A DNA stretch of 64,000 nt from Craspedostauros australis (lineage: Eukaryota). The position numbers and the translations under genes were made by a program. Positions 5,401 through 40,771 of this stretch are shown here, piece by piece. Where the stretch lies: NCBI GenBank assembly GCA_030167865.1, contig JALAGF010000008.1, forward strand, positions 1 to 64,000, in the 5' to 3' direction. Every line of letters starts with the position of its first letter. Within the stretch, counting starts at the first letter, position 1. The notes under the pieces were generated by a model. The model had not been told where the DNA came from, made no database searches, and saw only the letters and a program-made list of their open reading frames with translations.

Positions 5401-6811
5401 ATGCGGGATGCCCAAGACAACGTCGCCGAACATGTCAAGCAGACGACGGTAGGCATCGAAAGCGAACCTTTCATCGCCTGCCGCCTTTGCCAAGGCATGG
5501 ACGGTATCCTCGTTGAGTCCCTGCGATGCATAGGTATGTGATTCATACATGATGCAAGTGTTGTTGTCGACGTGCAGAGTCATTGTTGTTGGCAGGCAAA
5601 ATGCGTGGAAAAGGCACAGCAGAACGGAACAAGACCATTGCAACAGAGGTAAGCAGAGTTTGAGTGTGTTGATTGAGGCGCAATGTCATGACAAGACAAC
5701 ATTCCATCATGGCCGTGGCGGAGCGGTGTGCTACGCGTAGCTGCGATGCGGTCAGCAATCGAACAATTGCCATGGAGATCCGCAAGCACGCCCAAAGCAT
5801 GAATCTGCGACAAAATCGCTCCTTCCGACTCACAATGTTGAGGACCGTGTCCATCATGCCGGGCATGGAGATGGCGGCACCGCTTCTGCAGGAAAACAAG
5901 AGCGGGTTTCCCGATTTGGTGCCGTACTCCTTGCCGGTGTCGGCTTCGACCTGGCGAACGGACTCGCGGATGGCCGTCCAAACGGATGCGGGGAGGTCGT
6001 TGCCGAGGCCCTCGAAGTTCTGGCAGAGCTGGGTGGTGAGGGTGAATCCAGGGGGCACATGGGCGCCGATCTTGGTCATTTCTTGCAGTCCCAAGCCTTT
6101 GCCTCCGAGGATGGTCTTGTCCGGTTTGTCGACGGGGGTTGCGCTGCCGCCGAAGGGGACGATGCAGGCATCCACTTGTTCTGGTGTCATGATGGTCGTC
6201 ATCGTTGCTTTGCTTATTGCTGTTGCTGTTTCGTTTGTTCCTTCTTCTTCGTCTTTGTTGTTGAAATCTGCTGAAGGATTTGCTTCTGTTGATTTTATGG
6301 GTGCTGAGAAGAGGGATGAGGAGGTTGCGGAAGTTGGGCAAGTGGAGGATGCATCCGGCGCCGTCGTGATCTTTCCACCAAATGCCAACGATGAAGAGAC
6401 GATGGGTGGCGGAAACGAGAAGGTCGCAGCCTCATTGGTTCGGGTGCCCATGTTCTGACTTCCCGTTTTGACTGAGTGACGACCATGGTGGAAGGAGGGT
6501 GGAATAAGAAACGCTTCGGATACTGGCCACCCAGAAGTCCTCCTCGACGATGACGACGACGAAAGAGAAGTTGGCGATGATGGATGATGATGATGATGGA
6601 ACACGAATGGCGACATCATCATGATCAGAACCTTGGCTGTCATCATCCTCGACATCGACGGCATCGCATCAAATCCGAAGGATGATGTCAGCATCAGGGA
6701 GCCTCCGATCGATCCTGCGGCATTTGCGGTGATGGGCCCTTGGCTGATGTCACCCATCATGGCGATCAGCAGGGGCATGCCCAGAAGCAGAACCTTGGAA
6801 GGGCACTTCAT
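2493..6811 (-). CDS. PPDK: Pyruvate, phosphate dikinase (4 exons, ~1119 aa, long N-terminal presequence)
   Basis: Exons 6811-5834, 5520-4485, 4104-3422 and 3155-2493 join in frame across GT-AG introns. Motifs: LGGKG, [83 protein letters not shown]. The exact start Met is uncertain. Confidence 0.96.
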
Positions 6812-9685: not shown

Positions 9686-10762
9686 ATGTCATCCAAGGGC
9701 CGCAGCGAGATTTCGGATGCGGCTTACGAAACCATCAAGATCCTCAAGGATGGCACCTACACTGCGACCGATCCCATCTCGAAGCGAGATGCCGTAGTGG
9801 ACATGAAGGACATCCTTAAGACCGCCTGCGATGGGACGCAATGCTACGCGCACAACGCCCCCCTGCGGGTGCCCGCCGCACAGTACCAAACCGACGTGCA
9901 GGTCACGAAGGAGACCACGCTGCAATGCGCCAGCCGTCTGTCGAAGGATTTTGAGAATGGCAGCATCGGCATCCTCAACTTCGCCAGCGCCAAGCATCCG
10001 GGAGGTGGCTTCCAGCGGGGTTCCTGGGCGCAGGAGGAAACCATCGCCACCTGCTCTGGCCTGTACGCCTGTCTCACGACTCCGCAGGCCAAGGTCTTTT
10101 ACGACGCGCATGATCCCAAGAAGAACAAGAAGGGTGGGCTTTCGGGTGGGGCAAAGAAGCCAGCTCGACGGGGGTTGTTTGGCAAGGGATTCCGATCCTC
10201 CAAGGCCGGCGCTGGTTCCGCAACTGCAACGACGAAAAGCAGCGCGGCTCCGGAATCGGCATCCGCCAATGAACCACCCTACAATATTTACACGCACAAC
10301 ATAGTATTCGCACCCAACGTTCCCGTATTTCGCAACGAACGCAACTTGGAGCTGACCACGTCCATGTACACGTGCAACATGATCAGCGCCTGCGCCGTCA
10401 ACTTCAACGCCGGTATGTTCTCCAAGCGCAAGCTCACCATCGAAGAGAAGGAGTTCCCTCTGCAGACCATGCAGATGCGGGCGCTGCGCATCCTGCAGGT
10501 GGCCGCGCATCACAAGATCGACACGCTGGTGCTGGGTGCATGGGGATGCGGCGTCTTCAAGAACGATCCCTACGACGTGGCCAAGATGTTCAAGGGCGCC
10601 CTGCTGCATCCGGATATGGAGCACGCCTTCCGCTCGATCGTATTCGCCATTCCTGATGACCCCAAGAGCCCTGAGACCAGCCTGTGGTTCACCAAGGAAT
10701 TTGCCAAGGAGAAGGTCGACCCACGGTTGAAGTCGGCCGTCAACAACCTTCCGAGGTGGTAA
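9686..10762 (+). CDS. Microbial-type poly(ADP-ribose) glycohydrolase / TIGR02452 (DUF2263) macrodomain protein
   Basis: LNFASAKHPGGGFQRGSWAQEETI (PARG GGG-x6-QEE signature) and LVLGAWGCGVFKNDP; intronless; caccATG start context. Confidence 0.88.
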   Translation: MSSKGRSEISDAAYETIKILKDGTYTATDPISKRDAVVDMKDILKTACDGTQCYAHNAPLRVPAAQYQTDVQVTKETTLQCASRLSKDFENGSIGILNFASAKHPGGGFQRGSWAQEETIATCSGLYACLTTPQAKVFYDAHDPKKNKKGGLSGGAKKPARRGLFGKGFRSSKAGAGSATATTKSSAAPESASANEPPYNIYTHNIVFAPNVPVFRNERNLELTTSMYTCNMISACAVNFNAGMFSKRKLTIEEKEFPLQTMQMRALRILQVAAHHKIDTLVLGAWGCGVFKNDPYDVAKMFKGALLHPDMEHAFRSIVFAIPDDPKSPETSLWFTKEFAKEKVDPRLKSAVNNLPRW

Positions 10763-11633: not shown

Positions 11634-13913
11634 ATGACGATGATGAAGTCCTTGTGTCCATTGGTGCGACGCAGCATTCTCCTTTCCCTCGTGCTGGCAT
11701 TCGCGGAACCCCCGGCCCTTGCATTTGGATATGCGCCGGTGCCTTTGCCATTGCACAATGGCGGAGCGCAGGCATGTGGGTGGGGAATGCAGCATCGTTC
11801 TGGGCTTGCCCAAGCGCCATTTGCAACAGACGACACGACCACCTGCCTGCGTGCCAGTTCCAACAGCAACAATGGCAACGACAGCCAGTCGGTGACGTCC
11901 AACACTCTCGACGGCGCTGGCGAACGTACTGAAGCACTGGCTGATAGTTGGATTGCTCAGTCGTACAACAGCGAAGACGCCGACGGCAGCGGTCAGCGGG
12001 ATGCTTCTGGCAAGGCCACCTCGTCGCCATCCGACGCCTCCTTCAGCCACCCACTGAAGGAGGCAACAGACGCGGCCTTCGTTGGCCCTCATGATGTGCT
12101 CATCTATGACACCACATTGCGCGACGGCACGCAAGGCGAATCCGTGTCGGCATCCTGCGAGGACAAGCTCAAGATCGCAGAACGCCTGGCGGATTTTGGT
12201 GTGGACTACATCGAAGCAGGATGGCCGGGAAGCAATCCAAAGGACGCGGAGTTCTTCGCGCGCGCCCCATCCGAACTGTCGCCGCAAGCACGCTCCAGGC
12301 TGGTCGCATTCGGAAGCACACGCCGCAAGAACATCGCGGCGAAGGATGACAAGCAGCTGCAAGCACTGCTGGATGCCAACGTCCCGACGATCTGCCTCGT
12401 CGCCAAGTCTCACGCCTGGCAGGTGACCGACATCCTGCGATGCACCCTCGAAGAGAACCTCAACATGATTTCCGATTCCGTGGCCTACCTTGTCAGCCAA
12501 GACAAGACGGTGCTGGTGGATCTGGAGCATTTCTTCGACGGGTACAACGAGAGTCCCGACTACGCTCTGCTCTGCTGCCAAGCTGCCGTGGATGCGGGTG
12601 CATCGTCCTTGGTGCTGTGTGATACCAACGGTGGCAGTATGCCATGGGAAGTCGCTCAGGTTTCGGAGGCCGTCACAACGCACTTTCAAAAGGAGGAAGA
12701 TGACAAGAGACGTCCACTGACCATCGGCATCCACACTCACAATGACTGTGGAATGGCTGTGGCCAACTCCTTGCAGGCATGCCACTCTGGCATTGGCTTG
12801 ATCCAGGGCACCATGAACGGCATCGGGGAGCGCACGGGCAACGCCGATCTATGCAGTATCATCCCATCTCTCGCGCTGCACGTCGAGTCAAAGATCTCGT
12901 GCCGCGACAACCTCTCCAAGATGACCAAGCTATCCCGATGGGTCGACGAGGTATTGAATCGCAAACCCAACAACGCCGCGCCGTACGTTGGAGCATCTGC
13001 GTTTGCCCACAAGGGCGGGCTGCATGTTGCAGCCATGGGACGCTCCCCCAAATCCTACCAACACATCGAACCAGAGGACGTGGGCAACGAAAAGCGCGTG
13101 CTCATTTCGGAACTGAGCGGGCGTCAAAACATCCTGGGCATGCTCAAGGATATCTTCGGCGAAAACGAGGGCAGCAGCGACAGGGATGCTGGGAAGTCCT
13201 CCGAGCAATCCGAACGCGCAACGGCCATCCTGCAGCGGGTGAAGGAACTGGAGCACCAAGGATACACCTTCGAGGGGGCCGAAGCATCGGTGCACCTCAT
13301 GATCCTCCACGCCAGCAAGGGATACTGCCCACCATTCTCGGTGCTGGACTACAGCGCCCAAGTGTACGACCAGAGGCTGGATAGTGCCAGCCGCGTTGTT
13401 TCCAAGGAAAAGACACAATCCACCAATGGACAGCCCGCCATGCTGGCCTCGTCTACTACGAGCACTTCGAGGGCCACCGTCAATGTCCGAACCGTTGTGG
13501 TTGACGACGGTAAGACGACAGCCACCGACGGCATCGGAAGCAGCGACGTCGGCGAAGACGCCAACGATCAGGTGTGTTATCGCGACACATTGGAGGTCGC
13601 CGATGGTTGCGGACCCATCGACTCCTTGGCCAACGCGCTCATGCGGGCCCTGCTTCCCACCTACCCGTACCTGAAAAACGTCGAACTGGTCGACTACAAG
13701 GTCCGCATCCTCGATCCCGCCTCCGCAACGAACGCGGCAACCCGCGTGATGATCGAGTTTGCGGACACTGCCAGCGAAGCCACTTGGACCACCGTGAGCG
13801 TCGATCGCAACGTCATCAGCGCCAGTCTCAACGCGCTCGTGGATGGTGTTGAGTATGCCTTGGTGGAACATGCGCCTGTTTGCATGCTCTGCGACGATGC
13901 CTACACGTTGTAA
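11634..13913 (+). CDS. cimA: Citramalate synthase (bacterial CimA-type, alpha-IPM synthase/DRE-TIM family), probably plastid-targeted
   Basis: DTTLRDGTQGE, YIEAGWPGSNPKD, EHFFDGY, LCDTNGG, IHTHNDCG, GIGERTGNADL, SAFAHKGGLH, ISELSGR, EGAEAS and DYKVRIL...TRVMIE (LeuA-type regulatory domain). Start chosen at Met 11634, which gives a signal peptide and ALA|F. The ORF is open from 11415 (GTG). Confidence 0.85.
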   Translation: MTMMKSLCPLVRRSILLSLVLAFAEPPALAFGYAPVPLPLHNGGAQACGWGMQHRSGLAQAPFATDDTTTCLRASSNSNNGNDSQSVTSNTLDGAGERTEALADSWIAQSYNSEDADGSGQRDASGKATSSPSDASFSHPLKEATDAAFVGPHDVLIYDTTLRDGTQGESVSASCEDKLKIAERLADFGVDYIEAGWPGSNPKDAEFFARAPSELSPQARSRLVAFGSTRRKNIAAKDDKQLQALLDANVPTICLVAKSHAWQVTDILRCTLEENLNMISDSVAYLVSQDKTVLVDLEHFFDGYNESPDYALLCCQAAVDAGASSLVLCDTNGGSMPWEVAQVSEAVTTHFQKEEDDKRRPLTIGIHTHNDCGMAVANSLQACHSGIGLIQGTMNGIGERTGNADLCSIIPSLALHVESKISCRDNLSKMTKLSRWVDEVLNRKPNNAAPYVGASAFAHKGGLHVAAMGRSPKSYQHIEPEDVGNEKRVLISELSGRQNILGMLKDIFGENEGSSDRDAGKSSEQSERATAILQRVKELEHQGYTFEGAEASVHLMILHASKGYCPPFSVLDYSAQVYDQRLDSASRVVSKEKTQSTNGQPAMLASSTTSTSRATVNVRTVVVDDGKTTATDGIGSSDVGEDANDQVCYRDTLEVADGCGPIDSLANALMRALLPTYPYLKNVELVDYKVRILDPASATNAATRVMIEFADTASEATWTTVSVDRNVISASLNALVDGVEYALVEHAPVCMLCDDAYTL

Positions 13914-17891: not shown

Positions 17892-20800
17892 TCAATGACT
17901 CGCAAACTCGACCTTCAATTTCTCCAATTCGTCGCGCTTGATGCTGTAGGCCGCCTTTTCGATCTTGGCCGGCACGCCGTCGCCCAGAAGGTTGAAGATG
18001 TGCTTCATGCGCTCGTTCAGCATCTCGTTCGAATCCTTCTGCTCCTCGCAGCTCGTCAGCTGACGCACCAATTTGCGACGATCGGAAGGCGTGTGCAGAT
18101 GCGGGCACAGGTTCGTGAACAGCTTCACCGTGTTAGAGAAGTTCAGCGCGCCCAGGCTGAACGGATGCTCCACCTGACCGCCGATGGCGGGGATGCCCAG
18201 CGGGTGCTCGCCCGTCAGGATGATCTTCACCTGCTTCGTCTCGTACAGCAGCGTGCGCAGGATCATGGGGAACTCCTGCTCCTCGTCCTTCTTCTTCACC
18301 TGCTCCGTGCGATCGAACACGATCAGGGCCTTGTCGTTCTTCAGGCTCTTGCAGATCACGCGCAGCATCGACTCCGTGTCGGCGTCCTCGTCGATGGGCT
18401 GGCACTTCCCAATGTCCTCCAGCTGGTCCAGCAGCTGCCGCAGCAGCATGCGGCAGTTGATGTTCCTGCCGCTCTGCCGCGGCTTCACGAAGTAGATGTG
18501 GTGGATCTCCGACATCGTGCTGGCGCGTTCGTTGATGTAATGGCACAGCGCGCACGCCAACGACGACCGACCGATGCCAGGCTCGCCCAGGATGCTCACC
18601 AACCGCTTGCGCAGCTTCAGGATCGCCGTCAGCACGTAGTACAGGTCCACTTCGCGTCCCAGGAAGAACTGCGGCGGCGTCGGCGAAGGATCCTCCTGCA
18701 TCATGTTGCGCACGCTCAGCTCGGAACCCTTCGCTCCCAACCCCATCATGCTGCGCATGCGCACCAGGCTGCTGCGGCGTTTCGACTTTGATGGCAGCAT
18801 GTGCTGGTTCCGCGGTGGCTTCGGCCATTCGCGCACGGGCTTGGCCCGGAACACGGGCACGTCGTGGTTGCCACCCTTCGGCAACAGCACGAATTTCTCC
18901 ATCTCCGCATCGGGATCGCGGAGGTTCGGCGTGGCCCTGACGGCTTTGCATCCCTGCTGGAACGATTCCTGCACGGTGTGTCCGACAGCGAGCGCCAGGT
19001 AGAACTGACGCGTGAATGCGAGCGCCGCCGTGTCCTTCAGCTCGGACTCCTGACGGCAGCACACCACGTGCGGAACGCCTGCTGATGCGAACGTCTCACC
19101 GGCCAGTCCAGAGTGACAGGCAGACACGAAGACGAACTTGAACGGCGCGACGCCATCACGAACGATCAGCTCCTTGATGTCGTCGACGTTGAACCAGTTC
19201 GGACCTCCCATGCCATCCTCGAATGGCAGGAATTGGGTGTGACCGTGCCCGGAGTAATGCAAGCAGCTGCAACGCCGCGTCAGCGTCGCCAGCAACCGAG
19301 AATGATGCGCAGTGTCGAACGACACCTCGATATCTCGCGAGGCCTCCTTGAGGCATTGCCACAGCAACTCTCGCTCCATGTCGAAGTCCAGCTTTTCGAA
19401 CGGATGCAGGCAGTTCTCGCCATCTGCAAACACCAGCGGTGCGGAGAAAAGCACGGTGATCATGTTATCGCCCTCATCCGGCTCCGGTTCTTCCAGAGCG
19501 GCAGCATCCGCGGCTCGCAGCGATGGCAGCTTGCCGATGAACGAACTTCGCGAGAACAGCGTGGCGTCCGATTCATCGATGATGTCGAGTTCCGTCCCGA
19601 CGCGATCAAAGAGGGTTGATTCGGCCTCGCCCATTCCATTCATCTGACGGTCCAGATCCACGAGGTACCGTTCGATGGCGGCCTTGCGCGTCTTGCGGAA
19701 CAGCGTCGTGAGGCGGTTGCGCTGCGACTCTGTCAGAGATGGCTGGTTGTCCTCGAATCGGAGGAATGACAGCCCCGAATCAGCGTCGGACGCATTGAGA
19801 TGATCAAGGATCAGATCGACCAACGGTGCCGAGAACTTGTTGCCCGAGAGGTTAAGATGCACCAGAGAGGTGTTCTTCAGCAACGACGACGCCAGTATCT
19901 GGTAGGAGTCTCCCTCGAGGCTATTCCTGGACAAATCCAAGGTTCGCAGACACAGTGCGTTGTGCTTGAGCATCGCAAGGATCTCCAGCGCGCCCTGTCC
20001 CAAGAACAGATCGTTCTCCGCCAGAATTAGCGTGTGCAAGGATGATTTCCATGTCTTGGCCGCGCTTGCGGATCCCACGGTCTGGTTGTATCGGTAGTAC
20101 TCCGTGTACGAACGCAGGGTCTTCGCCACGTTGGTGGCTCTGCCGATGCGATTGCCAGACAGATCGAGCTGTTCCAAGTTGCATCCCGAGTCCTTGTCGT
20201 GCACCAGCTCAAGCACAAAGGCGCATGCCTCATCTCCCAGCTTGTTGCCACTCAAATCCAGACACTTGAGGCTCGATAGCGGTGCTCTCGATGGTCCTCG
20301 TTTGGACGGTCCGGATTGACCCAGCATCTTGAAGAACGAACTCCACGACTCTCGCGATATCTCGCAGCTGTTGCGAATGCCGAAGCTGACAAACTTGCCC
20401 TGCGTTTGTCCAACCGACGACAGATCGGATGGCCGGCGGCTGTCGAGCTCGGAATCAAAGTCACCCCCGGCTGATAGCTTCACCATGGTCTCCAGGATTA
20501 CGATCAGCGCGCGCAGCTCCCGATCATTCAAGATGTTGTCGAAGGTCAAGTACGACACCCATGGTGGCAGCGACCCCGTGAGGTTCGCGAGGATACCGCT
20601 GGCTTCATCTTTCTCGCTGTCCTTCTCGGACTCATGCACGAGCAACCACTCCGAATTGCGTGCGAAGGAGAGCCCGGTGATCATTGGGCAGAGGTACAGC
20701 GTTTGGACAAGCGAATCCACAAATTCACCCGCGAAGGTGCTGTTCGTGAACCCCAACGTCCAGTGCACATTTTCCGAATCCAACGACGACGCCTGCTTGT

Positions 20801-23800
20801 CGCACAGACGCGTCAGTAGCTGCCCCTCGCGGCGGAATGAGAAGTACCGTCGCTGCGGCATCATCAGGGCTCGGAAGTCGAAAGAAGCCTGCGGGCTCAG
20901 ATCGTTGACAGGGACGACCATGTTGCGCAGCAGACGCGACGGGAAGCAGGAGTCAAGCAGCTTCTCAATTCGAGGTGGTGTGGTATCCAGCAACGATGAC
21001 ATGCTGGGATCGGCCTTGGATTTCATCTCGAGTCTTCGGCGGTGTGACAGCACCCACTCCCGCTCGACCGAGGTCTCATTCAGTGGGAACATGTGGCGGT
21101 TCATCAACCCCACCTCATCGCTGACCAGCAAGGCATGCTGATCGCTCAGCGAACGATCGATGGTCCTTCTGACCTCTTCCGCGCCGTAAATGTCGGCGTA
21201 CTGTTTGACCAGCGACCGTCGTTGTTCCAGGGAGTCATCATCCGTTGTGAAGTTCTCGAACAGGTCCTTCGTGATCTCCGTATCCGTTGAAGCCTCGTCG
21301 CCGCTCCCAGATGCGCTCGACTGGCCCGATACCTGTCGGATCAACCGCATGGCGGCAGAGTTCTTCGTCTCATTGAACGCTGAACGCCAGGTGTGAATCA
21401 GCTGCACGCGGAGTTCGGCTCGGGCCATGGCCTGGATGAGTAGGGCACGTTGGAGGCAGAACCAATCCACCAGAAGATCCGGGTTGTTTCCGGCCACCTG
21501 CGCCGTGATTTCATCCTCCGTGAAGCCCAGAGACAGGAAGACCTGACTCGCCACGCTGGAGATATCGCTGCGTTCGCCGCCCAGATTCTTTGCTTGCAAC
21601 AGCTTCGGCAAGGACATGTCGACAATTCGTATCTTCAGCGGATCGTACTTGGCCAACGCCACGAGTCCACGCAAGGCGTTCATGTTGAGTTCGTTGGTGG
21701 CCTCTTGTGCGATGGCGCTTTCGCCGTTGGCTGACTCCTTGTTGGAGCTCTCGATCATTCGTTTCAGAATTCCGTCAAAGGCTTCCAGAATATCGATTGC
21801 CCATCTTGCGCAACCCTTGCTGGCTGCCGTGTCTGATAGCAGCAACGGTGCGAGCGATGCCAGCAAACGACACGACTCCTCCAGCAGATCCAATCGGTCG
21901 ACGGGTCCAAACTCCGGCTCCGCGTTGGGCGTCATCGACTGCGGGATAGAGGATATCCAGATCAAGCTCTCCAGACCGCCGCTTTCTGCCGTGTCCACAC
22001 AACCCTTGATCAATGTCTCGGTCGGATCCAGCCAATGCGCCTGCTGTGCGACCTTATGAGATGCCGAGTTCTTCTTGGTTGGCTTCGGTGGTGCCAGAAT
22101 GTTAGCCAATGCGCACAGTGCCTCGTGAAGTTCCTTGACGGTCTCCTGCAGAGTGCTGTCGCTGTCCCGCAAGCTCGATGCAACAAGTTGGTCAGTGCTC
22201 ATCAGCGGTGATATCATCTTCACATCATCCTTCAGTGTCTTTCCCAGGGCTTCCGCCGCGCCTGCATTACAGAGCTGCAACCGGGTTTGTCGTTTCGGGC
22301 TGGTGTCTTCGCTCAGCACGCGCAGCGCCTGGACGGCGATGAAACGTAGCTTGCCTTTGTGCTCGATAGCGATTTGGACGAACGAACCATGCGCCCATCC
22401 ATCGATGATCTCGCTGCAAGTGCGTGTAGAATAGTGGACAGGTGTGTGTGAGTTGTGTTGGGTTGACGGTATCAAATAACATTGGATGATACAGCCGCAA
22501 CAGCAAGAACACAGTCCAGCATGCACGCACATATCCCATTCCACTAAAGTCGGCACAAAGTCGGCGCAAAATGATCTTACCTCAGCACATAGTCTCTGGC
22601 ATCTGACGATGGACTGTTGGCCATTTCCAGACTTGCCGACAAGGAGCTCCCGCCCGTCATGGATCCTGCCGTGAGTTGGACCAGGGCGCTGGCGGCATAC
22701 TGCACCATCTGTCGCGATGCCGGGGAGCTGTGCTCAAACAACAGGGCGACGAGGTAGCTGACGCAGCGTGCTTCGATGACGGCCGCACGCGTGTGCGGTG
22801 CGACGCAGAGGGCGGAGATCATTTGCGACACGGCGAGGCGCACGTCGGAACCGACGGATTCTCGCAGGAGTTTGACAAGTTCATTGACGGCGCCCTCGTT
22901 GACGACCTGGGAATGAATCCAGCCGGCCATGTAACGGTCTTCGATGGAGATGAGATACCGGAGTGCGGATGCGGCAGGTCGGACCTTGTCCGGGTCTTTC
23001 GAGCGGATCCAATCCACCAAAATCCTCATGAGTCCTTCTCGCACGACGATGGGCCGGGCGACATCGACCTCGCAAAGTTGCTCCACGATGTTGTAGCCCA
23101 TGTCGATGACGACGCCTTCGTGATGAATGAGCTTGGCAAAGTGGGTGATGAGGGTGACGGCCGATTCCGTCAGTTCATGAATTTCCATGGAATCCTGTCC
23201 CTGATCAAAGACGGTGCTGCTGGTGCCTCCTTTGCGCAGTCGCATGGACCTCGATTGGCTGGGCCGCAGCATGGGTCGGTTGACCGTCTTCTTGCGCGAC
23301 GATCGCTCCGAACTCAGCAGCGGTTGCACGGCATGAATCCAGAGGATGTTGACCGCCTTCGCGGATGCGCGGCACAGTTCCTCTCGCGAAATCGTCACAC
23401 CCTGCGGCGAGATAGCATTCGACATGGCCAAGAATCGCAAGCACTCGATGACCTTGAGACCCAGCGACGGTGTCGTTTGCGAGCTGGCCACGTAGGATGG
23501 CAGCACGTAGGCCACCGCCATGGCAGCGACGATCTGTATGTGCTGCGACATGCCGTTGGTGCGGAACAAGGTTAAACAGGAATGCAGACCGCCGGACGAT
23601 CGGATGTCGGAGCGCAGCGTTTCGGATTCGCGTGCGAATTTCATCAACGCCAACGCTGCTGCCAACCGTTTCTCATTTTGCGCGCGCAGCATGCAGATCA
23701 AGGAGAATACGTCTTCGTTCTCCACCAGCAATTCGATCGTCGGTCCTTCGTTGCGGTTGGACTTTTTCTTCTTGGGCTGCGACTTCTTGCCCGTGCTCTC

Positions 23801-26020
23801 GCCGCTCGTGTTGCGTGACAGGTTGGGGTGTGTCCGCCGCGACGAGGATGAGGTGGACGTCATGGACTGCAGAGTGGTTTGCATGGGCTGTTGCTCGCGG
23901 CGTTTGGCGGAAGATGACGAATTCACGGATGACGATGAGGATATGTGTGCGTCGTGGCTTCTGCTGTTGTTGCTGGGCATGCTGTTGCTGCTGCTGCCTG
24001 CGCCGTGGTTCGGCCTCGTGTTGTGGCTGGATGACGAGGACAGGGGCTGCGACGTGCTGGATGGATTGGCCGCTGCCTGGCGCATGACGCCCTGACCAAC
24101 TTCGATGGCGGAACAAATCTCGTCGTTGAGGGCGAACAATTCTTCGATGTTGTGGATGGCGTCGGCTTCTTCCAGCGCGTTGGACAGCTTCTGCTGCAGC
24201 CTCGTCTGATCCGTCTTGCACATGCCCACAAGTTCGCGAACGTAGCTGACGTCGACCGACTTCTCGCCGCACGCCAGCAGCAGAGTTCTGTAATTCTCCT
24301 TGGCCACGCTGACGACGTCGTCGGATGAGATGGCTCCTGGCCTCGTGGCGCGGGCGGTCATGATTGGTTTTGAGTCCATGGCGGATCGGGATCTGTCGAG
24401 CGAGCGCATGGGGGAGGAGGATCTTGGTAGCTGCGTGTTTGATTCGGAGACGCTGCGGCCGCCGGCGGATGGGAGGAGGGCGGAGGGTGAGTGATGCTCT
24501 GCCATGCCAATGCGTCTGCTGCGGGATCCTCGTATCGTGGTGCTGCGGATTCCGTTGGCCGATGTGGTGGTGGTGGAATTGGACGAGGGCTGCATGCTGG
24601 CGTTGGATTGGTTGGAGGAGTAGGGCATGGAGCCGCCTGCTGGCGTCGTCAGGCTGTGCGTGCTGGACAAGCTGACGACGCTGCTGGCCGACATGTTGGG
24701 GAGCGAGGTGAGGCTGTGGTGGAGGTGGCTGTTGGCGTTGAGGCCACTGTTGTGGTTGGTGTTGGGAGTGCTGCTGTTGCCATTGCCTTGAGCATTGCCG
24801 TTGATCATGGCGATGTTGTTTGCTGCGGGGCTGGACAAGCGACGTAGCTGTTGCTCCACTTCCTGCAGCTGCGCTGGCGGTGCTGATCTGGCATCCCACT
24901 GAGCTCCTGACGCTGATGAGTCCATGGGTGATACCGACGCGTGCCCTGCGGTGTTTCCATCGTTGCTGTTGTTGTCATTGTTGTTGTTGGTGGCGCTGTT
25001 GTTGTTGTTGTTGTCATTGTTGTTGGGGGAGGACGCACCCCCGGACGATGCCGCGTGGATCGTGGCCGCCATCGCAGCGGGAGACGGCAGACTGCTGTTG
25101 GACGATCGACGCAGATTGAAGTGATCGTTCATGACGGAGTTGGTATCGGCGGGGTCGTCGTCCTCCAGCGACTTCTTCGATTTTCCCGTTCCAAATAACG
25201 TGGTTGGGTTCTTCGCGGGAGCGGATGGCGCGGAATGTGCAGACATGGCGGACGACACGGACGCGGCGTCATTGAACTTGAACGTGGTGGTGGGACCGAA
25301 TGTGGTGGTGCGCTGTTCTCGGCTGGATCTGCCACCGACGCTGCTGCTGCTGCTGGCGATGCCGCTTGCCGCCGTCGAGAGGTTGGACGTGAGCATGGGA
25401 TCGTCTAACTGGTCTAGTTCCGAGATGCCGTAGTAGGGCGACGGCGTCCTTCGACCTGCGCCTGGCTGCGACAGCAGGGACGACGATCCCGGTCTCGCAT
25501 CCGGCGTGGAAAAGTGCACATCCGGCTTGTGAGGCGCGGTACCGTTGGCATCGGACGACGGTCCATGCAGGAGACGCGATCGACGCCCAAAGGTGACCGC
25601 GTTGTGCTCCGGTGCCGACGTGCCTCGCGTGTATCGCGATGGCGCCAGGATGCTGCCTGACTTAATGTGAGCAGGCGAGGCGGACGAGGCTGATGTGGGT
25701 GATACAGAGGAAGGACCGATGGCGGATCTCGTTCGATCGCCGTTCCCGTTGATCCCGCTGCTGCCGGCTTGATCTCCGTATCCCATGTATCCGGCGTACG
25801 CGCCTCCGATCGCTGGCGACGATGATTGTGAGGAGGTGATGGAACCCATCTGCGGAGCGCCTCCGGACGTCGCGGCATGCATGGGAAGGGTGCCGGAGGG
25901 TATGCCGCTGTGCTGCGCATCATGGCCGGCACCGGCTCCGCCTCCCAACGAGTGTGCGGAGGGTGAAGACCCGCCCGGTCTGTCGCCGGCGCCTTGTCGC
26001 TGTCGTCGGAATCTGTTCAT
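17892..26020 (-). CDS. ~2653-aa multidomain protein: disordered N-terminus, GAT-like helix bundle, ARM repeats, RNI-like LRRs, CHAT (caspase-like) domain, P-loop/STAND-like NTPase
   Basis: Exons 26020-22581 and 22413-17892 join in frame (intron GTAAG...TTGCAG, phase 2). LRR motifs LDLSGNKLG, LDLSGNRIG, LDLSRNSL, LNLSGNKF. CHAT motifs LHYSGHG and FVFVSACHSG. NTPase motifs FLGRE...ILGEPGIGRSSLA and LIVFD. Confidence 0.85.
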
Positions 26021-33879: not shown

Positions 33880-36800
33880 ATGGCGACGGATGTAACCATG
33901 CAGGAGGACTCTGGGCTTGCTTCCGCAGCGTCAGCTGTTCCTCGCATCAGTCCAGATGCCATCCATGATGGTGTTGATGTGGACACTAATGTGAACACTA
34001 ATGCTAATGCTAATGTTGATGCTAATGCTAATGCTAATGGAACCACCATCACAGCTACACCTGTCGACAATCAGATCAGGAGCAGCAACAGCATGGACAA
34101 CGACAGCAGCAACAGCAACATGGCTTCGCCTTCGCCAGCACCCACCGAGGATTCCCGAACTGCATCGCAGGAACACACAACGACCGGCATTCCATCCAGA
34201 CCGCTGGTGCACCGCATCCGCTCCTTGGACCCGTCTTCCTCGCTCGCCTTTGCGGATGCCCAACCGCGTACGCATGAGTACAGCCGTCGTCACAGTCATG
34301 GACATGAGTTTGATCACGACGCCACGCATCAACAAGTGCGTCTCAGTCCCAGCAACATCAATCGTGTTGCCGCAACAACCACGCGTCCATCTGACGATGC
34401 AACAATGGCGAGAATGAGCGACGATCCTGATCATGTCGAGCAATCGCTTCCAACAGCCACTGTTGCGTCTACCAATGCATCCGGTGCCACCCATACACCT
34501 GCACAGGCAACCACCAATCAACCTGAAATGGAAGCAGGCAGTGACGCCTACACAAACAACAACGATCAACAGCAGCAGCAGCAGCAGCAACAACAGCAAA
34601 ATGCAACACGATCACCACCAACCGGGCAACCGCAGCATCCGCAACTGGACGAATCGGAATCTATTTTACTGCCACACCAACGTCCCAACCACCGGGGCGC
34701 CTCCATCTCAGGCAGTCAGGTCTACTGCATCATCTCTGGTCTGCTGGCTCTCGTGGCCATCCTCATGGCACCCATCCAGGTGGAAACGCTCAACGCAACC
34801 GCCAGAACCAACATCTTTCATCACAAATCGTCGCTCTTTTCATTCTCCATGGAAATCAACTCGCCCAAGACGGTGGAGCACAAACTGCTTCCGCAACTCA
34901 TTGCCCAATCGGCTTGGTTGGGAGCGCAGAAGGAACACAAAGCAGCGACCGACAACAACAAGAACAAGCCCGAACAATCGATCCCGCAGGTCCAGGAACC
35001 AACGGATTCCAACTCTGGACGGTCCAATCACTTCGTCGTTCGGGCCTTGGAAGATGTCTACACCTTCGCCTTTGGATTGCCAGGTCACGGCAACCTGGAG
35101 CAAAAACCCTCTCCAATCGATGACACGAAGCGCAAGCAGCAGCAGCAGTCAACGACAGGAGAACAGCAACCAAGATGGCCCAACGGCATCAAACGCTTCT
35201 TCGCCTCCCTGCAAGCCAAGCCCGCCACCATGATCCCGCCCAGCGATGTCGACGATGCCGTCATCTTTGACATCCAACCAAAACCAGCGCGAATGCAGAA
35301 CGACGACGAACCAAAGATCAAAACGAGGACGGCCTCCTTCTTTTCCATGCCATCATCTGACGGATCGCACATCATTCTGTTCCAGCAGTCGTCTTGGATT
35401 GATCCATGCATCGCGGATTGGGTACAATCCAAACTTGGCAGAGCCAGCAGCAACGCCTCTCGCTCGCAACACACATTCGCAACTATGCTTCTCATGCTGG
35501 CGCACAAAGTCATCGGAAACGCGTTGCGTCTGGGTTGTGTCTTGCATTGCATGTTCGCGTGGACGTACGTCGCCCACATTGCCATCGCCTCTCGGTTCCT
35601 CTCTTCGACGACCACCGTCAACGTCACGACCGCAGCGCGCGAACGCATCGGAGGATACATCCTCTTCAAGCTCTTCCTCACATCCCGAATACTCATCCCG
35701 GGAGCTGTGGCAGCAACAAAATCCATCTGGACGGAAGGCCAACAGGACATGCTCAACTGGCTTTGCATCTTGGCATGGTACACGTGCATCGCGTGCTTCC
35801 GATCCTGGAACATCCTCAGCGCTGCGGCGACCACCCGCATGCAGCATTCAGATTCGCAGTCCATACAGCAGCAGCGCCTTGTCGTGTCGCGTCGCGGCAC
35901 CGCAAACGACGAACACGATGATGCATCATCGGAGAACCCCATCCCGTGGCTACGATCCACCAACCCAGCCTCCAACGGCATCCTGGGATTGCTGGCATGC
36001 ATCCTCATTTGTAATGCCGTCGCGGCTGCAACCTGCATCGCTGTCGTCGTCCCGACGCGCGGCTGGAACATGGCCATCTGGTTGTGCGGCGAATGCCTGT
36101 TGCTGGCGGCCGAGGTCATCCAGCAGGCGCTGCAGCACGTGCGCACCGTGTGGGATTTGCAGCAATCGCAGCAGATCACCGCGCTGGAGGAGCAGCAGCT
36201 CAAGCAGCAGCAACAACAGCGCGATGTGGAACTCGACCAGCGCCTGGAGATGCTAGAGGTGGCGCACGCGCGACGTCTGCAATGGCTCGAGACCATGCTG
36301 TTCGGTTGCCAGCTCATCGGCCATTGCATCACCTTCATGCACTTCCTGCACATCTGGTCCATCCGCGGCGTGCAATGGACCCTGACGGATGGCCTCCTCG
36401 CGATTCATATCCATTCCGCCATCACGGGGGCCCTGCAGCAGATCTCACAGTGGCAGCACGTGCGCGCCATGGCGTCCGCCATCCAACGTCTCTTCCCCAC
36501 GGCCACCAGCTCCGATCTCGATGGCGATGTCTGCTGCATCTGCCTCGGCAGCATGGTCGTGCAGGGCCGTACCATCAAGGTGTTGCCGCGGTGCGGACAC
36601 CTCGTGCATGCCACGTGTTTGCGACAAGTCGTGGAACGAGCGCCGTCTTTGGAACATGCCCGATGCCCGCTGTGTCGCACCAATCTGCATCAGACCAAGA
36701 CCAAGGAGATGACAGTCGTGCAACCGCCACCAGCAGCAGCTATCGCAGCGCAAGCCATCAACCTGGAGCGCGCGGGTGTAGTTCCATCTCAGGCGGCGAC

Positions 36801-37239
36801 TCCCGCCACGAATGACCGGTCCCTGACACCCGGCGCAAACATCAATGCGGTCGACGACAACACGGCCGCAAACAATCTTGCGGCTGCTGCACCGCCGGTG
36901 GCTGGCGATCAAGCGCTGTTCCGATTGTCCACGGAAGGCATATTGCCATCGTGGATACCGATTCCGTCCTTCTCCTTTGAAGTCATCCGTCGGTCGCCGC
37001 AAGCTGCCGCACCGCCGGAACCAGCCGAACCGGTGCAGCAACAGCCTTCCATCCTGCGACGGTTGCTGTTCCTGCATTCCATGACGCCGGAACAAGAAGC
37101 TTTGGCGATGGAGAATCTGGTCGACATGTTCCCGCAGCATAACCGCGACGACCTGTTGCAGGCCTTGCGGCGGCGTGGATCCGCGGAGGCGGTGGTGGAA
37201 TCGATCTTTTTGGGTCGGTTGCCGGCAGGGAATTCTTAA
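33880..37239 (+). CDS. gp78/AMFR-HRD1(RIN2)-like membrane E3 ubiquitin ligase with RING-H2 and CUE domains
   Basis: Multiple hydrophobic segments; CCICLG...LPRCGHLVHATCL...CPLCR; C-terminal LVDMFPQHNRDDLLQALRRRGSAEAVVESI (CUE MFP motif). Confidence 0.85.
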   Translation: MATDVTMQEDSGLASAASAVPRISPDAIHDGVDVDTNVNTNANANVDANANANGTTITATPVDNQIRSSNSMDNDSSNSNMASPSPAPTEDSRTASQEHTTTGIPSRPLVHRIRSLDPSSSLAFADAQPRTHEYSRRHSHGHEFDHDATHQQVRLSPSNINRVAATTTRPSDDATMARMSDDPDHVEQSLPTATVASTNASGATHTPAQATTNQPEMEAGSDAYTNNNDQQQQQQQQQQQNATRSPPTGQPQHPQLDESESILLPHQRPNHRGASISGSQVYCIISGLLALVAILMAPIQVETLNATARTNIFHHKSSLFSFSMEINSPKTVEHKLLPQLIAQSAWLGAQKEHKAATDNNKNKPEQSIPQVQEPTDSNSGRSNHFVVRALEDVYTFAFGLPGHGNLEQKPSPIDDTKRKQQQQSTTGEQQPRWPNGIKRFFASLQAKPATMIPPSDVDDAVIFDIQPKPARMQNDDEPKIKTRTASFFSMPSSDGSHIILFQQSSWIDPCIADWVQSKLGRASSNASRSQHTFATMLLMLAHKVIGNALRLGCVLHCMFAWTYVAHIAIASRFLSSTTTVNVTTAARERIGGYILFKLFLTSRILIPGAVAATKSIWTEGQQDMLNWLCILAWYTCIACFRSWNILSAAATTRMQHSDSQSIQQQRLVVSRRGTANDEHDDASSENPIPWLRSTNPASNGILGLLACILICNAVAAATCIAVVVPTRGWNMAIWLCGECLLLAAEVIQQALQHVRTVWDLQQSQQITALEEQQLKQQQQQRDVELDQRLEMLEVAHARRLQWLETMLFGCQLIGHCITFMHFLHIWSIRGVQWTLTDGLLAIHIHSAITGALQQISQWQHVRAMASAIQRLFPTATSSDLDGDVCCICLGSMVVQGRTIKVLPRCGHLVHATCLRQVVERAPSLEHARCPLCRTNLHQTKTKEMTVVQPPPAAAIAAQAINLERAGVVPSQAATPATNDRSLTPGANINAVDDNTAANNLAAAAPPVAGDQALFRLSTEGILPSWIPIPSFSFEVIRRSPQAAAPPEPAEPVQQQPSILRRLLFLHSMTPEQEALAMENLVDMFPQHNRDDLLQALRRRGSAEAVVESIFLGRLPAGNS

Positions 37240-37434
37240 TTGCGTAACATCGAGTTGAGTACCTCAATCTATCATATTCTATTCTATTAGAACGATTTTT
37301 ACTTCACAATGAATGAGATGCAGTTTGTCGTTGACCGTTGCATGAGCATGTGGGGTGATAATCAAATGTTATTTTACGCGTTGATTATTTGATTGATCGA
37401 TTGCCTCTTCTCCTCTCTCCGTCGAGTACGGGCT

Positions 37435-38984
37435 TCATTCTATTTCCTGACGCATGTGCACACGGATATCCAACGTGGATAAATCCAGCTCCTCCTTCAG
37501 CTTGCTGATCTCCTTCACCAATTCATCGAAGACTTCTGTGTCGCCTGCCTGGATGGAGGTCGATGATACCATGGCCTTCACGAAGAATTCACGCTTCTTC
37601 GTCTTCTGATTCCAACGCAGCTCCGTGCTCAATTCCTCGAAGCTCATTCCGTTGTTTGCGATGCGTTCGGAAATGGCGGCGAGCATGCCAGGGCTGTTGT
37701 TGTGTGCATGTTACGCAGTTGATGGTTACATTGGGATTGACGTTGACGAGGGATAATATGTTGCAAGCGGGGTGAGTGCGCGTGAAGCAAAGCATGGCAA
37801 GTACGAAAATGGTGGAGTACCAGGACTTGTGGAAAGTCGACGCTCTCTTCCACATACCAGCAATACATAGCAGGCAGTAGACAGTAGACAGCACGCTGCT
37901 GCAACGCACGAAAATAATAGACACAAACTCACCGATCTTCACCGATACAATTGATGACCATCCCCATGACGGCCTTCTTGGTCGGATGCGCGTCATACTC
38001 CCGCCGTCTCAGCTCCGTGACATGAATGTCCATCTCGTGGCTGATGGTCTTGCGCCGTTGCAAATTGCTCTGAATGACGTGCTTCTTCTCCGGCGGTATG
38101 GCGACGTGCATCTGGATGATGAATTCTTCCCCCAGCCGCACCATCTTGGAATGCGTGATGTTGCCCCCGTCGCGCGCGATGTGCTGTGTCAATCCTGCCA
38201 CGATGCCCGCGCGGTCCTTGCCGACGGCCGAGACGTTGAAATGGGCCATGTTGTGATCCATCTCCACGGGCGTGTTGTTGAAATTTTCGTCGAGACCTTC
38301 GCGCATGAGTGAGAGGGTGGAACCCGTGACGGCACCCATGGCCAAGTCGTCGGCGTGCACGACGTCTCCACCGCGCATGGCCGACAGCACGCAGGTCCAC
38401 AGCAGCGAGACGCCGGCGGTGAAGGGGATGCGCATGTGCATCGGCATGAAGGCGAAATTAAGGCAAGTGGCCGGGACCCAGATCTTCCACAGGGCTATGA
38501 GATCCTCACGGATGTTGACGGTGAAGTAGTCCGTCAGGACCTTCTTGATGTCGGGCGGGTTGCTGGGATTGGACATGACCATCTCGCGCGTGATGTAGAA
38601 GGCCGGGAAGTACATCAAGGGGTGGTGCACGCACTGGTCGAGGAAGACCTGCGCGACGAGCTGGATCATGCCCTTGGTGTCCTTGAGCTTGTCCACGAGA
38701 GGCAGCTTGGCGAATTTCGCAGCATGCGGGAAGAGGCGACCGAAGATGGGAACGTAGAGGCTGTACTGCACGCCGCCCAAGTAGACGAAGCCGAACGTGG
38801 CAAACGCGGCGTTGCGCTTCCAGTCCACCTCCTTGCGCTGCTCCACGACCTTCTGCACCAGCAGATCGGAGAAGGAGGTCTTGAAGCCGGAGATTATCAC
38901 TCCAAAGGCGAACGGGTACTTCACAGGCATGGCCTTGCTCCTCGACCAGAACGACGATGCGGCGCGTCCGAATGTGGATGTCAT
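37435..38984 (-). CDS. Mpv17/PMP22-family membrane protein fused to two ACT domains (GcvR-like), ~436 aa
   Basis: Exons 38984-37933 and 37693-37435 (GTGAG...CAG, phase 2). Mpv17 motifs: SDLLVQ, DWKR, VFLDQ, WKIWVPATCLNFAFMPMHMR, W...LS. ACT motifs: VSAVGKDRAGIVAGLT...GGNITHSKM and CIGEDRPGMLAAISE. Confidence 0.85.
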
Positions 38985-39737: not shown

Positions 39738-40771
39738 ATGGCCGACGTTGAAGAACCAATCGCTGAACCAGCCCCAGAGGAGCCAGAAGCCGAGGAGGCG
39801 GAGGAAGAAGAAGAGGAGGCCGCCGAGGAAGAGGAAGCCGAAGAGGAGGAATTTGCCGCTGTCGGCGGTGCCACCGAGGTCAAGCTCTTCGGAAAGTGGT
39901 CCTTCGATGACATTGAGGTCCGCGATATCTCCCTTGAGGTACGTGCGAGCACATGAAGATGCGGTTGGTTGAGTGGTGTGCGTTGGAAGGAGAGGAGATC
40001 GGCAACAAGCGGAACTGGCTGGAGATCGATCAACACGGTGAACCACATGCATGGACGGACGGACGCCAACAGTGAAGACAGCAACCCGCAAATGTGATGC
40101 ACACAGACCTTCTCACATCATCATATCTCCTTGCCTCAATCATCGTTTCCGCACACTGGACGAATCGCTGATGGAACGAATGGATCAACTCGGGTTGCTT
40201 TCTTCCATCACTTCGCTACCGCACTGAATGAATTCATGGCTGCTCTGAATCGTTACAACCACAGGACTACATTGCCTGCAAGGGTGACCATGCCGTCTAC
40301 CTCCCACACACCGCTGGACGATACCAAATGAAGCGATTCCGCAAGGCATCGTGCCCAATCGTCGAGCGACTTGTGTGCTGCCTCATGAAGAAGGGACGCA
40401 ACAACGGAAAGAAGCTGCAGGCGTGCCGAATCGTTCAGCACACTCTCGAAATCATCCACCTCCTCACTGACCAGAACCCAATCCAGGTCATCGTCGATGC
40501 CATCATCAACTCCGGACCACGCGAAGATTCCACACGAGTGGGAGGAGCCGGTGTCGTCAGACGCCAGGCCGTCGATATGTCGCCATTCCGACGTGTCAAC
40601 TACGCCCTCTTCCTCCTCGCCACTGGCGCCCGTGAGGCCTCCTTCCGCAACCTCAAGACAATGGGAGAGTGTCTGGCCGAGGAGCTCATCAATGCCGCCC
40701 GTGGATCATCAAACTCTTACGCCATCAAGAAGAAGGATGAGATTGAACGTGTTTCCAAGAGTAACCGTTAA
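39738..40771 (+). CDS. RPS5: 40S ribosomal protein S5 (uS7)
   Basis: Exons 39738-39938 and 40265-40771. [61 protein letters not shown]. Confidence 0.97.

Follow-up and report, generated by a model that had tools for sequence, protein, structure and literature searches.

The gene and its surroundings

The window analyzed here, that is, the whole stretch formed by the first 64,000 nucleotides of contig JALAGF010000008.1 of Craspedostauros australis (assembly GCA_030167865.1), contains on its minus strand a gene whose product joins a membrane domain of the Mpv17/PMP22 family to a pair of ACT domains. The gene consists of two exons (38984-37933 and 37693-37435) and, after splicing, encodes 436 amino acids with no internal stop, from an ATG at 38984 to a TGA at 37437-37435. 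It is a real, expressed and spliced gene, and the domain fusion it encodes is widely conserved. Exon 1 (37933..38984, minus strand), open over 350 codons plus two bases of Arg351, comprises the N-terminal segment, the Mpv17 domain, a linker, the first ACT domain (ACT1) and the first strand of the second (ACT2), and is defined by its open reading frame, by Pfam and, from 38499 to 37933, by a spliced contig. Its product matched PF04117 at residues 162-201 (E 4.9e-12, 46.1 bits against a gathering cut-off of 27) and PF13740 (ACT_6) at residues 251-322 (E 3.2e-11, 43.4 bits against a cut-off of 23). The two Pfam domains that a preliminary description of this DNA had proposed are thus both found above cut-off and, as it had stated, share one exon; the start it gave for the first ACT domain, near 38243, coincides with His248, whose codon begins at that position.

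The intron (37694..37932, minus strand; 239 nt, GT..AG, phase 2) interrupts the Arg codon within the motif EDR/PG. An 886-nt contig of a run called here X1 presents 0 differences over 38499-37933 and 37693-37376 and lacks precisely these 239 bases. Since the precise skip of a GT..AG interval is what splicing yields, the contig was read as a spliced transcript, a support that comes from one contig of a single run, only presumed to be RNA, and that leaves the first 161 codons uncovered. Rather than ending before the ACT region, as the preliminary description had considered, the contig continues through it and links the last two Mpv17 helices with both ACT domains; the completion of ACT2 across one intron, also anticipated, is borne out by this skip, by orthologues and by a structure model. 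Exon 2 (37435..37693, minus strand), supported by the spliced contig and by orthologues, holds the remainder of ACT2 and the stop codon, ends in a tripeptide that is not of the peroxisomal targeting signal 1 (PTS1) type, and encodes a peptide 32-51% identical to that of 40 full-length orthologues. It is followed, within the contig, by a 3' untranslated stretch (37376..37434, minus strand). The GC content at third codon positions is 0.68-0.89 across the coding segments, and that of the intron 0.48. The exon-2 part was matched by 40 of 120 database hits and is absent from the other 80, of which 69 end or diverge immediately past the motif G-x-D-[RKQ]. As breaks at the junction motif are expected of intron-blind gene calls, this pattern suggests that the intron position is common to diatoms.

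The gene neighbourhood showed no functional link to the fusion (RING/CUE ligase, ribosomal protein, pyruvate phosphate dikinase, isopropylmalate synthase). Convergent with it, at 33880-37239 (plus strand), lies a single-exon gene for a 1119-aa membrane protein with RING and CUE domains, a gp78/AMFR-like E3 ligase, and head to head with it, about 750 bases away, a gene with one intron (39740-40771, plus strand) whose product looks by eye like ribosomal protein S5/uS7 with a long acidic N-terminus. Pyruvate phosphate dikinase exons and 2-isopropylmalate synthase, at 4432-6811 (minus strand) and 11634-13913 (plus strand), are ordinary metabolic genes. A microbial-type PARG catalytic domain (E 9.4e-36) is encoded at 9686-10762 (plus strand), with a 379-aa open frame without Pfam match on the opposite strand. 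Finally, at 17892-26020 (minus strand) two adjacent frames 45 bases apart encode LRR-CHAT-NACHT (1546 aa) and ARM repeats (1147 aa), possibly parts of one large STAND-type protein with the unusual order ARM, LRR, CHAT, NACHT.

The membrane domain, the linker and the ACT pair

The membrane domain (residues ~19-205; 38370..38930, minus strand), delimited by Pfam, conservation and the model of an orthologue, comprises four long helices. With MPV17/Sym1 of the mitochondrial inner membrane and PXMP2/PMP22 of the peroxisome it has in common PF04117, the four long helices and a short basic N-terminus, and with MPV17, Sym1 and PXMP2 the conserved positions R, DQ-x4-P and W-x3-L-S. These three are single-domain proteins of about 180-200 residues, whereas the fusion continues for another 230 residues, which include the two ACT domains, and falls in a separate subfamily of protist proteins. 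K35, D40, Q44, R57, Q73, Q112, D116, H120, H121, D161, N176, R185, S201 and R204 are near-invariant polar residues, and 57 positions of the domain are conserved at ≥95%, among them polar residues inside helices, as one would expect for a solute path. The hydropathy of the domain is modest, with peaks of 1.2-1.5. The structure was predicted with AlphaFold for the orthologue P0013, 68% identical over exon 1; the mean predicted local distance difference test score (pLDDT) and the predicted template modelling score (pTM) were 81.9 and 0.48 with 35 sequences, and 87.5 and 0.63 with 113. The long helices of the model span residues 23-46, 54-83, 102-136, 143-175 and 178-201, mostly with pLDDT >90, and the four to five membrane helices expected after a short N-terminal helix are present. 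Sequence searches of solved structures found no Mpv17 structure for comparison.

The linker (residues 206-247; 38244..38369, minus strand), which contains a predicted helix according to the orthologue model, starts directly after the invariant S201-x-M-R-G, three residues past S201. Its length in 76 orthologues is 32-89 residues, with a median of 41, and G217, G221, E229 and D243 are conserved in diatoms. By spacing, in unaligned sequences, S201, P122 and R57 would correspond to human S170, P98 and R50. Fly Mpv17 passes uridine and its opening requires the S170-equivalent serine (PMC10558772, PMC6166979), and family members of yeast, fly and human form wide channels in bilayers (PMC10558772, PMC6166979, PMC7318627). 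A linker of some 41 residues with conserved diatom positions, leaving the last helix near S201, makes a mechanical coupling of the ACT pair to the last membrane helix plausible.

Residues 1-18 (38931..38984, minus strand) are basic and, from composition, orthologues and the model, seem to be partly the first helix of the family. The N-terminus lacks acidic residues, as previously described, the first one being at position 40, and the same holds for the segment ahead of the first conserved Pro in 56 of 72 orthologues. The N-terminal extension in these 72 has a median of 10 residues (≤8 in 28 of them), a length that speaks for the family's first helix rather than for a presequence; a few orthologues carry 40-residue Arg-rich extensions. 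Sym1/MPV17 is imported through internal signals, with no cleavable N-terminal signal (PMC6166979). Judged by these sequence features, the basic N-terminus is not diagnostic of the organelle. Inspection of residues 1-18 by eye found no hydrophobic signal peptide, which argues against a secondary plastid; an ochrophyte Mpv17 was selected elsewhere as a plastid-targeted candidate (PMC5462543). Mitochondrion-targeted glycine-cleavage 'R' proteins have been reported in diplonemids (PMC12699882), and a preprint proposes that the C-terminus of MPV17 faces the matrix (10.1101/2024.04.12.589178). The lack of a signal peptide by eye, the Arg-rich extensions of those few orthologues, the mitochondrial-type presequences seen by eye in stand-alone tandem-ACT relatives of diatoms and the diplonemid proteins speak for the mitochondrion, where the protein probably resides, most likely in the inner membrane; a peroxisomal location would be somewhat unlikely.

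ACT1 (38010..38243, minus strand) was delimited by Pfam, conservation and the orthologue model, and ACT2 (residues ~340-432; 37450..37967, minus strand), which is split by the intron, by orthologues and the model. The latter domain carries G348, D350, R351, P352 and G353, and S368 replaces the usual Asn. A Pfam scan of exon 2 by itself gave no ACT match because strand 1 of ACT2 sits in exon 1. In the P0013 model a helical membrane portion is followed by two ACT folds, so the fold on which the preliminary description made its proposal depend is predicted in both places. Fold matches spanning both ACT domains were found with GcvR-like 1U8S (Z 14.2, 171 residues aligned, root-mean-square deviation (rmsd) 5.7), Galdieria ACTP 2NYI (Z 13.2, 169 aligned, rmsd 4.2) and SerB2 (Z 11.6, 162 aligned, rmsd 5.2), with the serine-bound entry 5JLP among the closest folds, and the order of the matched families was unchanged across repeated searches. 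ACT2 matched 1ZPV (Z 12.4, rmsd 1.5, 82 aligned), and sequence-profile matches over both ACT domains were obtained with 2NYI (E 1.9e-17) and 1U8S (E 2.2e-17). Searches with the whole model returned ACT matches only, the membrane domain not being searched separately. Among the fold neighbours of the pair is the ACT-like C-terminal domain of MgtC, itself a membrane protein; this domain is not known to bind an amino acid.

The relationship with GcvR requires some precision. The GcvR model PRK11589 scored 33.6 bits against a cut-off of 267, on the exon-1 protein only, in which most of ACT2 is unscored. Membership in GcvR was rejected, the equivalog cut-off being missed widely and the ACT domains being fused to a eukaryotic membrane domain; PF04117 was found in 0 of 14 prokaryote control genomes. 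GcvR is a soluble protein acting on GcvA-dependent transcription. From the GcvR-like tandem ACT domains of the preliminary description there remains, then, the fold relationship (1U8S), and the family assignment falls: the protein belongs to the Mpv17/PMP22 family and to the ACT superfamily, and is not a GcvR. GcvR being only a fold relative, glycine is not implied as the ligand.

Conservation was analyzed in 76 full-length fusions <70% identical, taken from 161 full-length fusions. Their mean pairwise identity is 62% in the Mpv17 domain and 29% in the ACT pair, where the median frequency of the top residue is 38%. The D-R-x-G loops and the Asn at +18 rank among the most conserved ACT positions, G255 being kept in 74 of the 76, D257 in 63, G260 in 66, N275 in 57, D350 in 69, P352 in 60 and G353 in 74. 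The serine site of SerA1 is built by D463 and R464 of one ACT domain and N481 of the partner domain, and D15 of SerB2 contacts the amino group of serine (PMC6630544). The spacing of 18 between D463 and N481 is that between D257 and N275, and between D350 and S368. ACTP is a domain-swapped dimer. In ACTP, ACT1 pairs with ACT2, and if the fusion does likewise, the ACT2 loop would probably face Asn275 of ACT1. With such pairing, one putative site, made of the ACT2 loop and ACT1 Asn275, is complete in 54 of the 76 fusions, and the other, made of the ACT1 loop and the ACT2 Asn, in 23, which predicts one main site.

Distribution, sister fusions and origin

A first search yielded 472 relatives among 1996 candidates, and of the best 120 listed, 119 carry both PF04117 and PF13740; the named carriers were diatoms or diatom-bearing Kryptoperidinium. 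A search with a profile built from 18 distant fusions (8000 candidates scored, 214 hits, best 120 listed) also reached Chlamydomonas eustigma, Chrysophaeum taylorii and Thecamonas trahens, and 10 proteins looked up individually brought in Lotharella globosa, Paulinella micropora, Emiliania huxleyi and Pelagomonas calceolata. The fusion therefore spans stramenopiles, Rhizaria, haptophytes, green algae and an apusomonad, the non-diatom lineages being mostly known from one or two named records each; in the heterotrophic apusomonad Thecamonas it lies on a 406,747-base contig. The ESM Atlas holds a cluster of 92 members with this architecture, and databases list it under the automatic names ACT domain-containing protein and peroxisomal membrane family protein.

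At least 28 places in the C. australis genome match PF04117 and 3 match ACT_6, and both matches occur only in this gene. The PF04117 places make a large Mpv17 family for one genome; three of them are on contig C4961, and four with identical scores may be assembly duplicates. Most Mpv17 paralogues of the genome share only 21-31% identity with the fusion. Two ACT-free paralogues belong to the same Mpv17 subfamily, being 43% and 38% identical; such paralogues lie at L002:1423-2076 and L003:1090-2058 (both plus strand), and the L003 product has, by eye, a bipartite plastid-type presequence. One gene encodes a stand-alone tandem-ACT protein (G000:C3503, L007:1565-2152, plus strand; ACT_6 74 bits), which has 136 relatives, the named ones from diatoms and many with mitochondrial-type presequences by eye. 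The third ACT_6 match of the genome (G000:C4320:15180-15287, minus strand) falls within a 376-aa open frame.

Other modules were found where the fusion has its ACT pair. The best 150 of the 6142 representatives in the fusion-profile search included 13 long proteins matching only over the membrane domain, which were scanned for further domains. Seven have EF-hands C-terminal to Mpv17 (P0173, P0181, P0183, P0185, P0186, P0199 and P0206; the named ones are from the chlorarachniophytes Amorphochlora and Bigelowiella), two have tandem domains binding cyclic nucleoside monophosphates (cNMP), and four have no further Pfam match. The cNMP fusions, P0189 of the dinoflagellate Gymnodinium smaydae and P0192, have two cNMP-binding domains each, with an EF-hand-like stretch between those of P0189, and are candidate cyclic-nucleotide-regulated Mpv17 proteins. 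A profile of the EF-hand tail matches P0246 and P0176, two of the four proteins without a Pfam tail, and one cNMP fusion. P0240 also has a long tail, which resembles read-through and was left out of the domain count. Within this Mpv17 subfamily, the fusions with EF-hands or cNMP-binding domains fall outside the branches of the ACT fusions, and these neighbouring branches, with their domains at the same C-terminal place, are new in this analysis; no paper on an Mpv17-EF-hand fusion was found in the open full-text literature. Three kinds of ligand-sensing module at one position are the best indirect evidence that this membrane domain may have a regulatory handle at its C-terminus.

Trees built on the membrane domain separate the fusions of diatoms, green algae and pelagophytes into groups. 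In FastTree, a single branch with support 98 gathers 46 of 48 ACT fusions, and IQ-TREE recovers a core of 16 at 95/94, a main group of 20 at only 75/55, and two rows outside; under the approximately unbiased (AU) test, neither a single ACT clade (p 0.43) nor a clade uniting all sensor fusions (p 0.057) can be rejected. The FastTree branch includes 14 rows without ACT label, mostly truncated gene calls, among which P0159, P0167 and P0194 could be true ACT losses. Pairwise identities of the membrane and ACT modules correlate (Spearman 0.70). The stand-alone diatom ACT proteins form a branch separate from the fused pairs (support 96), and the diatom fusion is hence not recently derived from them. 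What fits the sequences best is that the two modules were joined long ago and have been inherited together since, with frequent loss or occasional transfer; a second independent fusion may have occurred in P0151, P0160 and P0163. In P0127 of Paulinella micropora the ACT pair groups with diatoms (support 99) and the membrane domain with pelagophytes, a conflict that makes recombination, transfer or contamination possible in that case.

A possible metabolite-regulated organellar channel

We tentatively favour, at somewhat under an even chance, a metabolite-regulated organellar channel, probably mitochondrial, in which ACT feedback of the SerB2 type would be applied to a channel. The membrane domain would oligomerize to form a small-metabolite pore in the organelle membrane, and the C-terminal ACT domains would pack ACT-to-ACT and bind an amino acid or a comparable small metabolite, preferentially at the site that the D350-R-P-G353 loop of ACT2 forms with Asn275 of ACT1. 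The ligand would shift the ACT assembly and, through the linker helix, the last membrane helix, so that the open probability or the assembly of the pore would change and the flux would come under feedback control. Channel activity, oligomer and ACT pairing are here drawn from knowledge of the families, and we infer glycine or serine as one candidate ligand class among several amino acids. The EF-hand and cNMP sister branches, together with the conserved ligand-site residues, add support to a ligand-regulated organellar channel. A broader proposal, that of an ancient protist Mpv17/PMP22 subfamily ligand-gated via interchangeable C-terminal sensors (amino acids by the ACT pair, calcium by EF-hands, cyclic nucleotides by tandem cNMP-binding domains), is possible, though less likely than not.

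The elements of such a channel have counterparts in known systems. In mycobacterial SerB2 (3P96, 5JLP) tandem ACT domains are placed on an effector and an ACT domain binds serine for allosteric control, but that effector is a phosphatase C-terminal to the ACT domains, whereas that of the fusion is a membrane domain N-terminal to them, and the identity is 14-16%. The best profile and structure matches over both ACT domains, Galdieria ACTP and GcvR-like 1U8S, are soluble stand-alone proteins of about 20% identity, and imply no transcription role for the fusion. The stand-alone tandem-ACT proteins of diatoms and diplonemids ('glycine cleavage R'-like), 34% identical to the fused pair over 130 residues, are soluble and have a presequence, unlike the fusion. 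That a membrane transport domain can bear a sensor or an ACT-like domain has precedents in the EF-hand-regulated ATP-Mg/Pi carriers and in MgtC; their membrane folds are unrelated to Mpv17, and the likeness is an analogy only.

Several observations weigh against the regulated channel. The literature yielded no binding, conductance or localization data for any fusion member, and the EF-hand and cNMP fusions are themselves uncharacterized. The second site is degenerate: Asn368 is present in only 24 of the 76 fusions, most diatoms having Ser there, and the ACT1 loop is eroded in several of the distant members. The Gly and Asp of the loops also have structural roles, conservation alone being no proof of binding; the ligand cannot be read off an ACT sequence, and the glycines of the loops are not always needed (PMC11190351). 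Considering the low confidence of the P0013 model at residues 202-219, where the linker starts, and its pTM values, a fixed ACT-membrane contact is not established by the prediction. Furthermore, non-channel roles are on record within the family, as with WSC, Pex37 and MPV17L2 (PMC7318627, PMC4117752).

A ligand-free ACT pair, serving as an assembly module for dimerization, oligomeric state or membrane shaping, is unlikely. In its favour, ACT domains often drive oligomerization (PMC11190351), Mpv17-family proteins act in large complexes, and disease alleles fail to assemble (PMC6166979); in addition, the ACT pair has changed at roughly double the rate of the membrane domain, one of its sites is degenerate, and the ACT-like domain of MgtC is among its fold neighbours. 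Nevertheless, the ACT-free paralogues in the same genome indicate that the membrane domain can exist without ACT, both halves of one canonical site are retained in those 54 fusions, and the sister branches bear true sensor folds. Rather improbable is the regulation by the ACT pair of a partner enzyme, for instance the glycine cleavage complex or a nitrogen-assimilation enzyme, with Mpv17 as an ungated anchor or substrate feed. The closest relatives of the pair are indeed stand-alone regulators, GcvR and plant ACR11 act through binding of other proteins, and a stand-alone relative, in many cases with a mitochondrial-type presequence by eye, occurs throughout diatoms; however, a stand-alone ACT protein is already available in the same genome, and the membrane domain is conserved beyond the needs of an anchor, with many of its 57 most conserved positions polar and within helices.

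Very unlikely is a peroxisomal or mitochondrial channel gated by glycine or serine and serving photorespiratory flux alone, a narrower form of the possibility raised in the preliminary description. The fold is GcvR-like and SerB2-like, most named carriers are algae, and glycine cleavage is mitochondrial; yet the fusion of the non-photosynthetic Thecamonas indicates that it is not a photorespiration-specific device, no land plant appears in the named minority of the 240 rows listed, the GcvR cut-off was missed and the neighbouring genes are unrelated. As to an artefact, whether a wrongly joined gene model or two genes read through by chance, for which the hits lacking the exon-2 part could be invoked, its probability is negligible and it was discarded, since Mpv17 and ACT1 share one exon, the frame is open after splicing, the X1 contig joins all parts, the shortened hits are intron-blind gene calls broken at the same motif, and orthologues derived from transcripts are full length.

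The fusion of an Mpv17 domain with ACT domains is apparently undescribed so far. No description of it was found in the main texts of the open full-text literature, in agreement with the earlier statement that no characterized example was known; Mpv17 or PMP22 receives no more than a brief mention in PMC11986044, PMC12480563, PMC7050145, PMC5755239 and 10.64898/2026.08.13.744648. The human disease gene MPV17 has a role that is called elusive in the literature, and the cargo and gating of MPV17, Sym1 and PXMP2 have long been open. A built-in soluble sensor offers a handle on this question, through the identity of the ACT ligand and then its effect on the opening of the pore, and a soluble module of 20 kDa makes a better target for cryo-electron microscopy; the EF-hand and cNMP fusions provide a parallel case with known ligands. 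If the gating proposed here were true, the protein would become the first organellar channel with ACT gating, whose ligand would hint at the cargo class of the whole MPV17 family. It would also represent a new class of metabolite-gated organellar channels in abundant marine algae, through which amino-acid status would be translated into organelle permeability.
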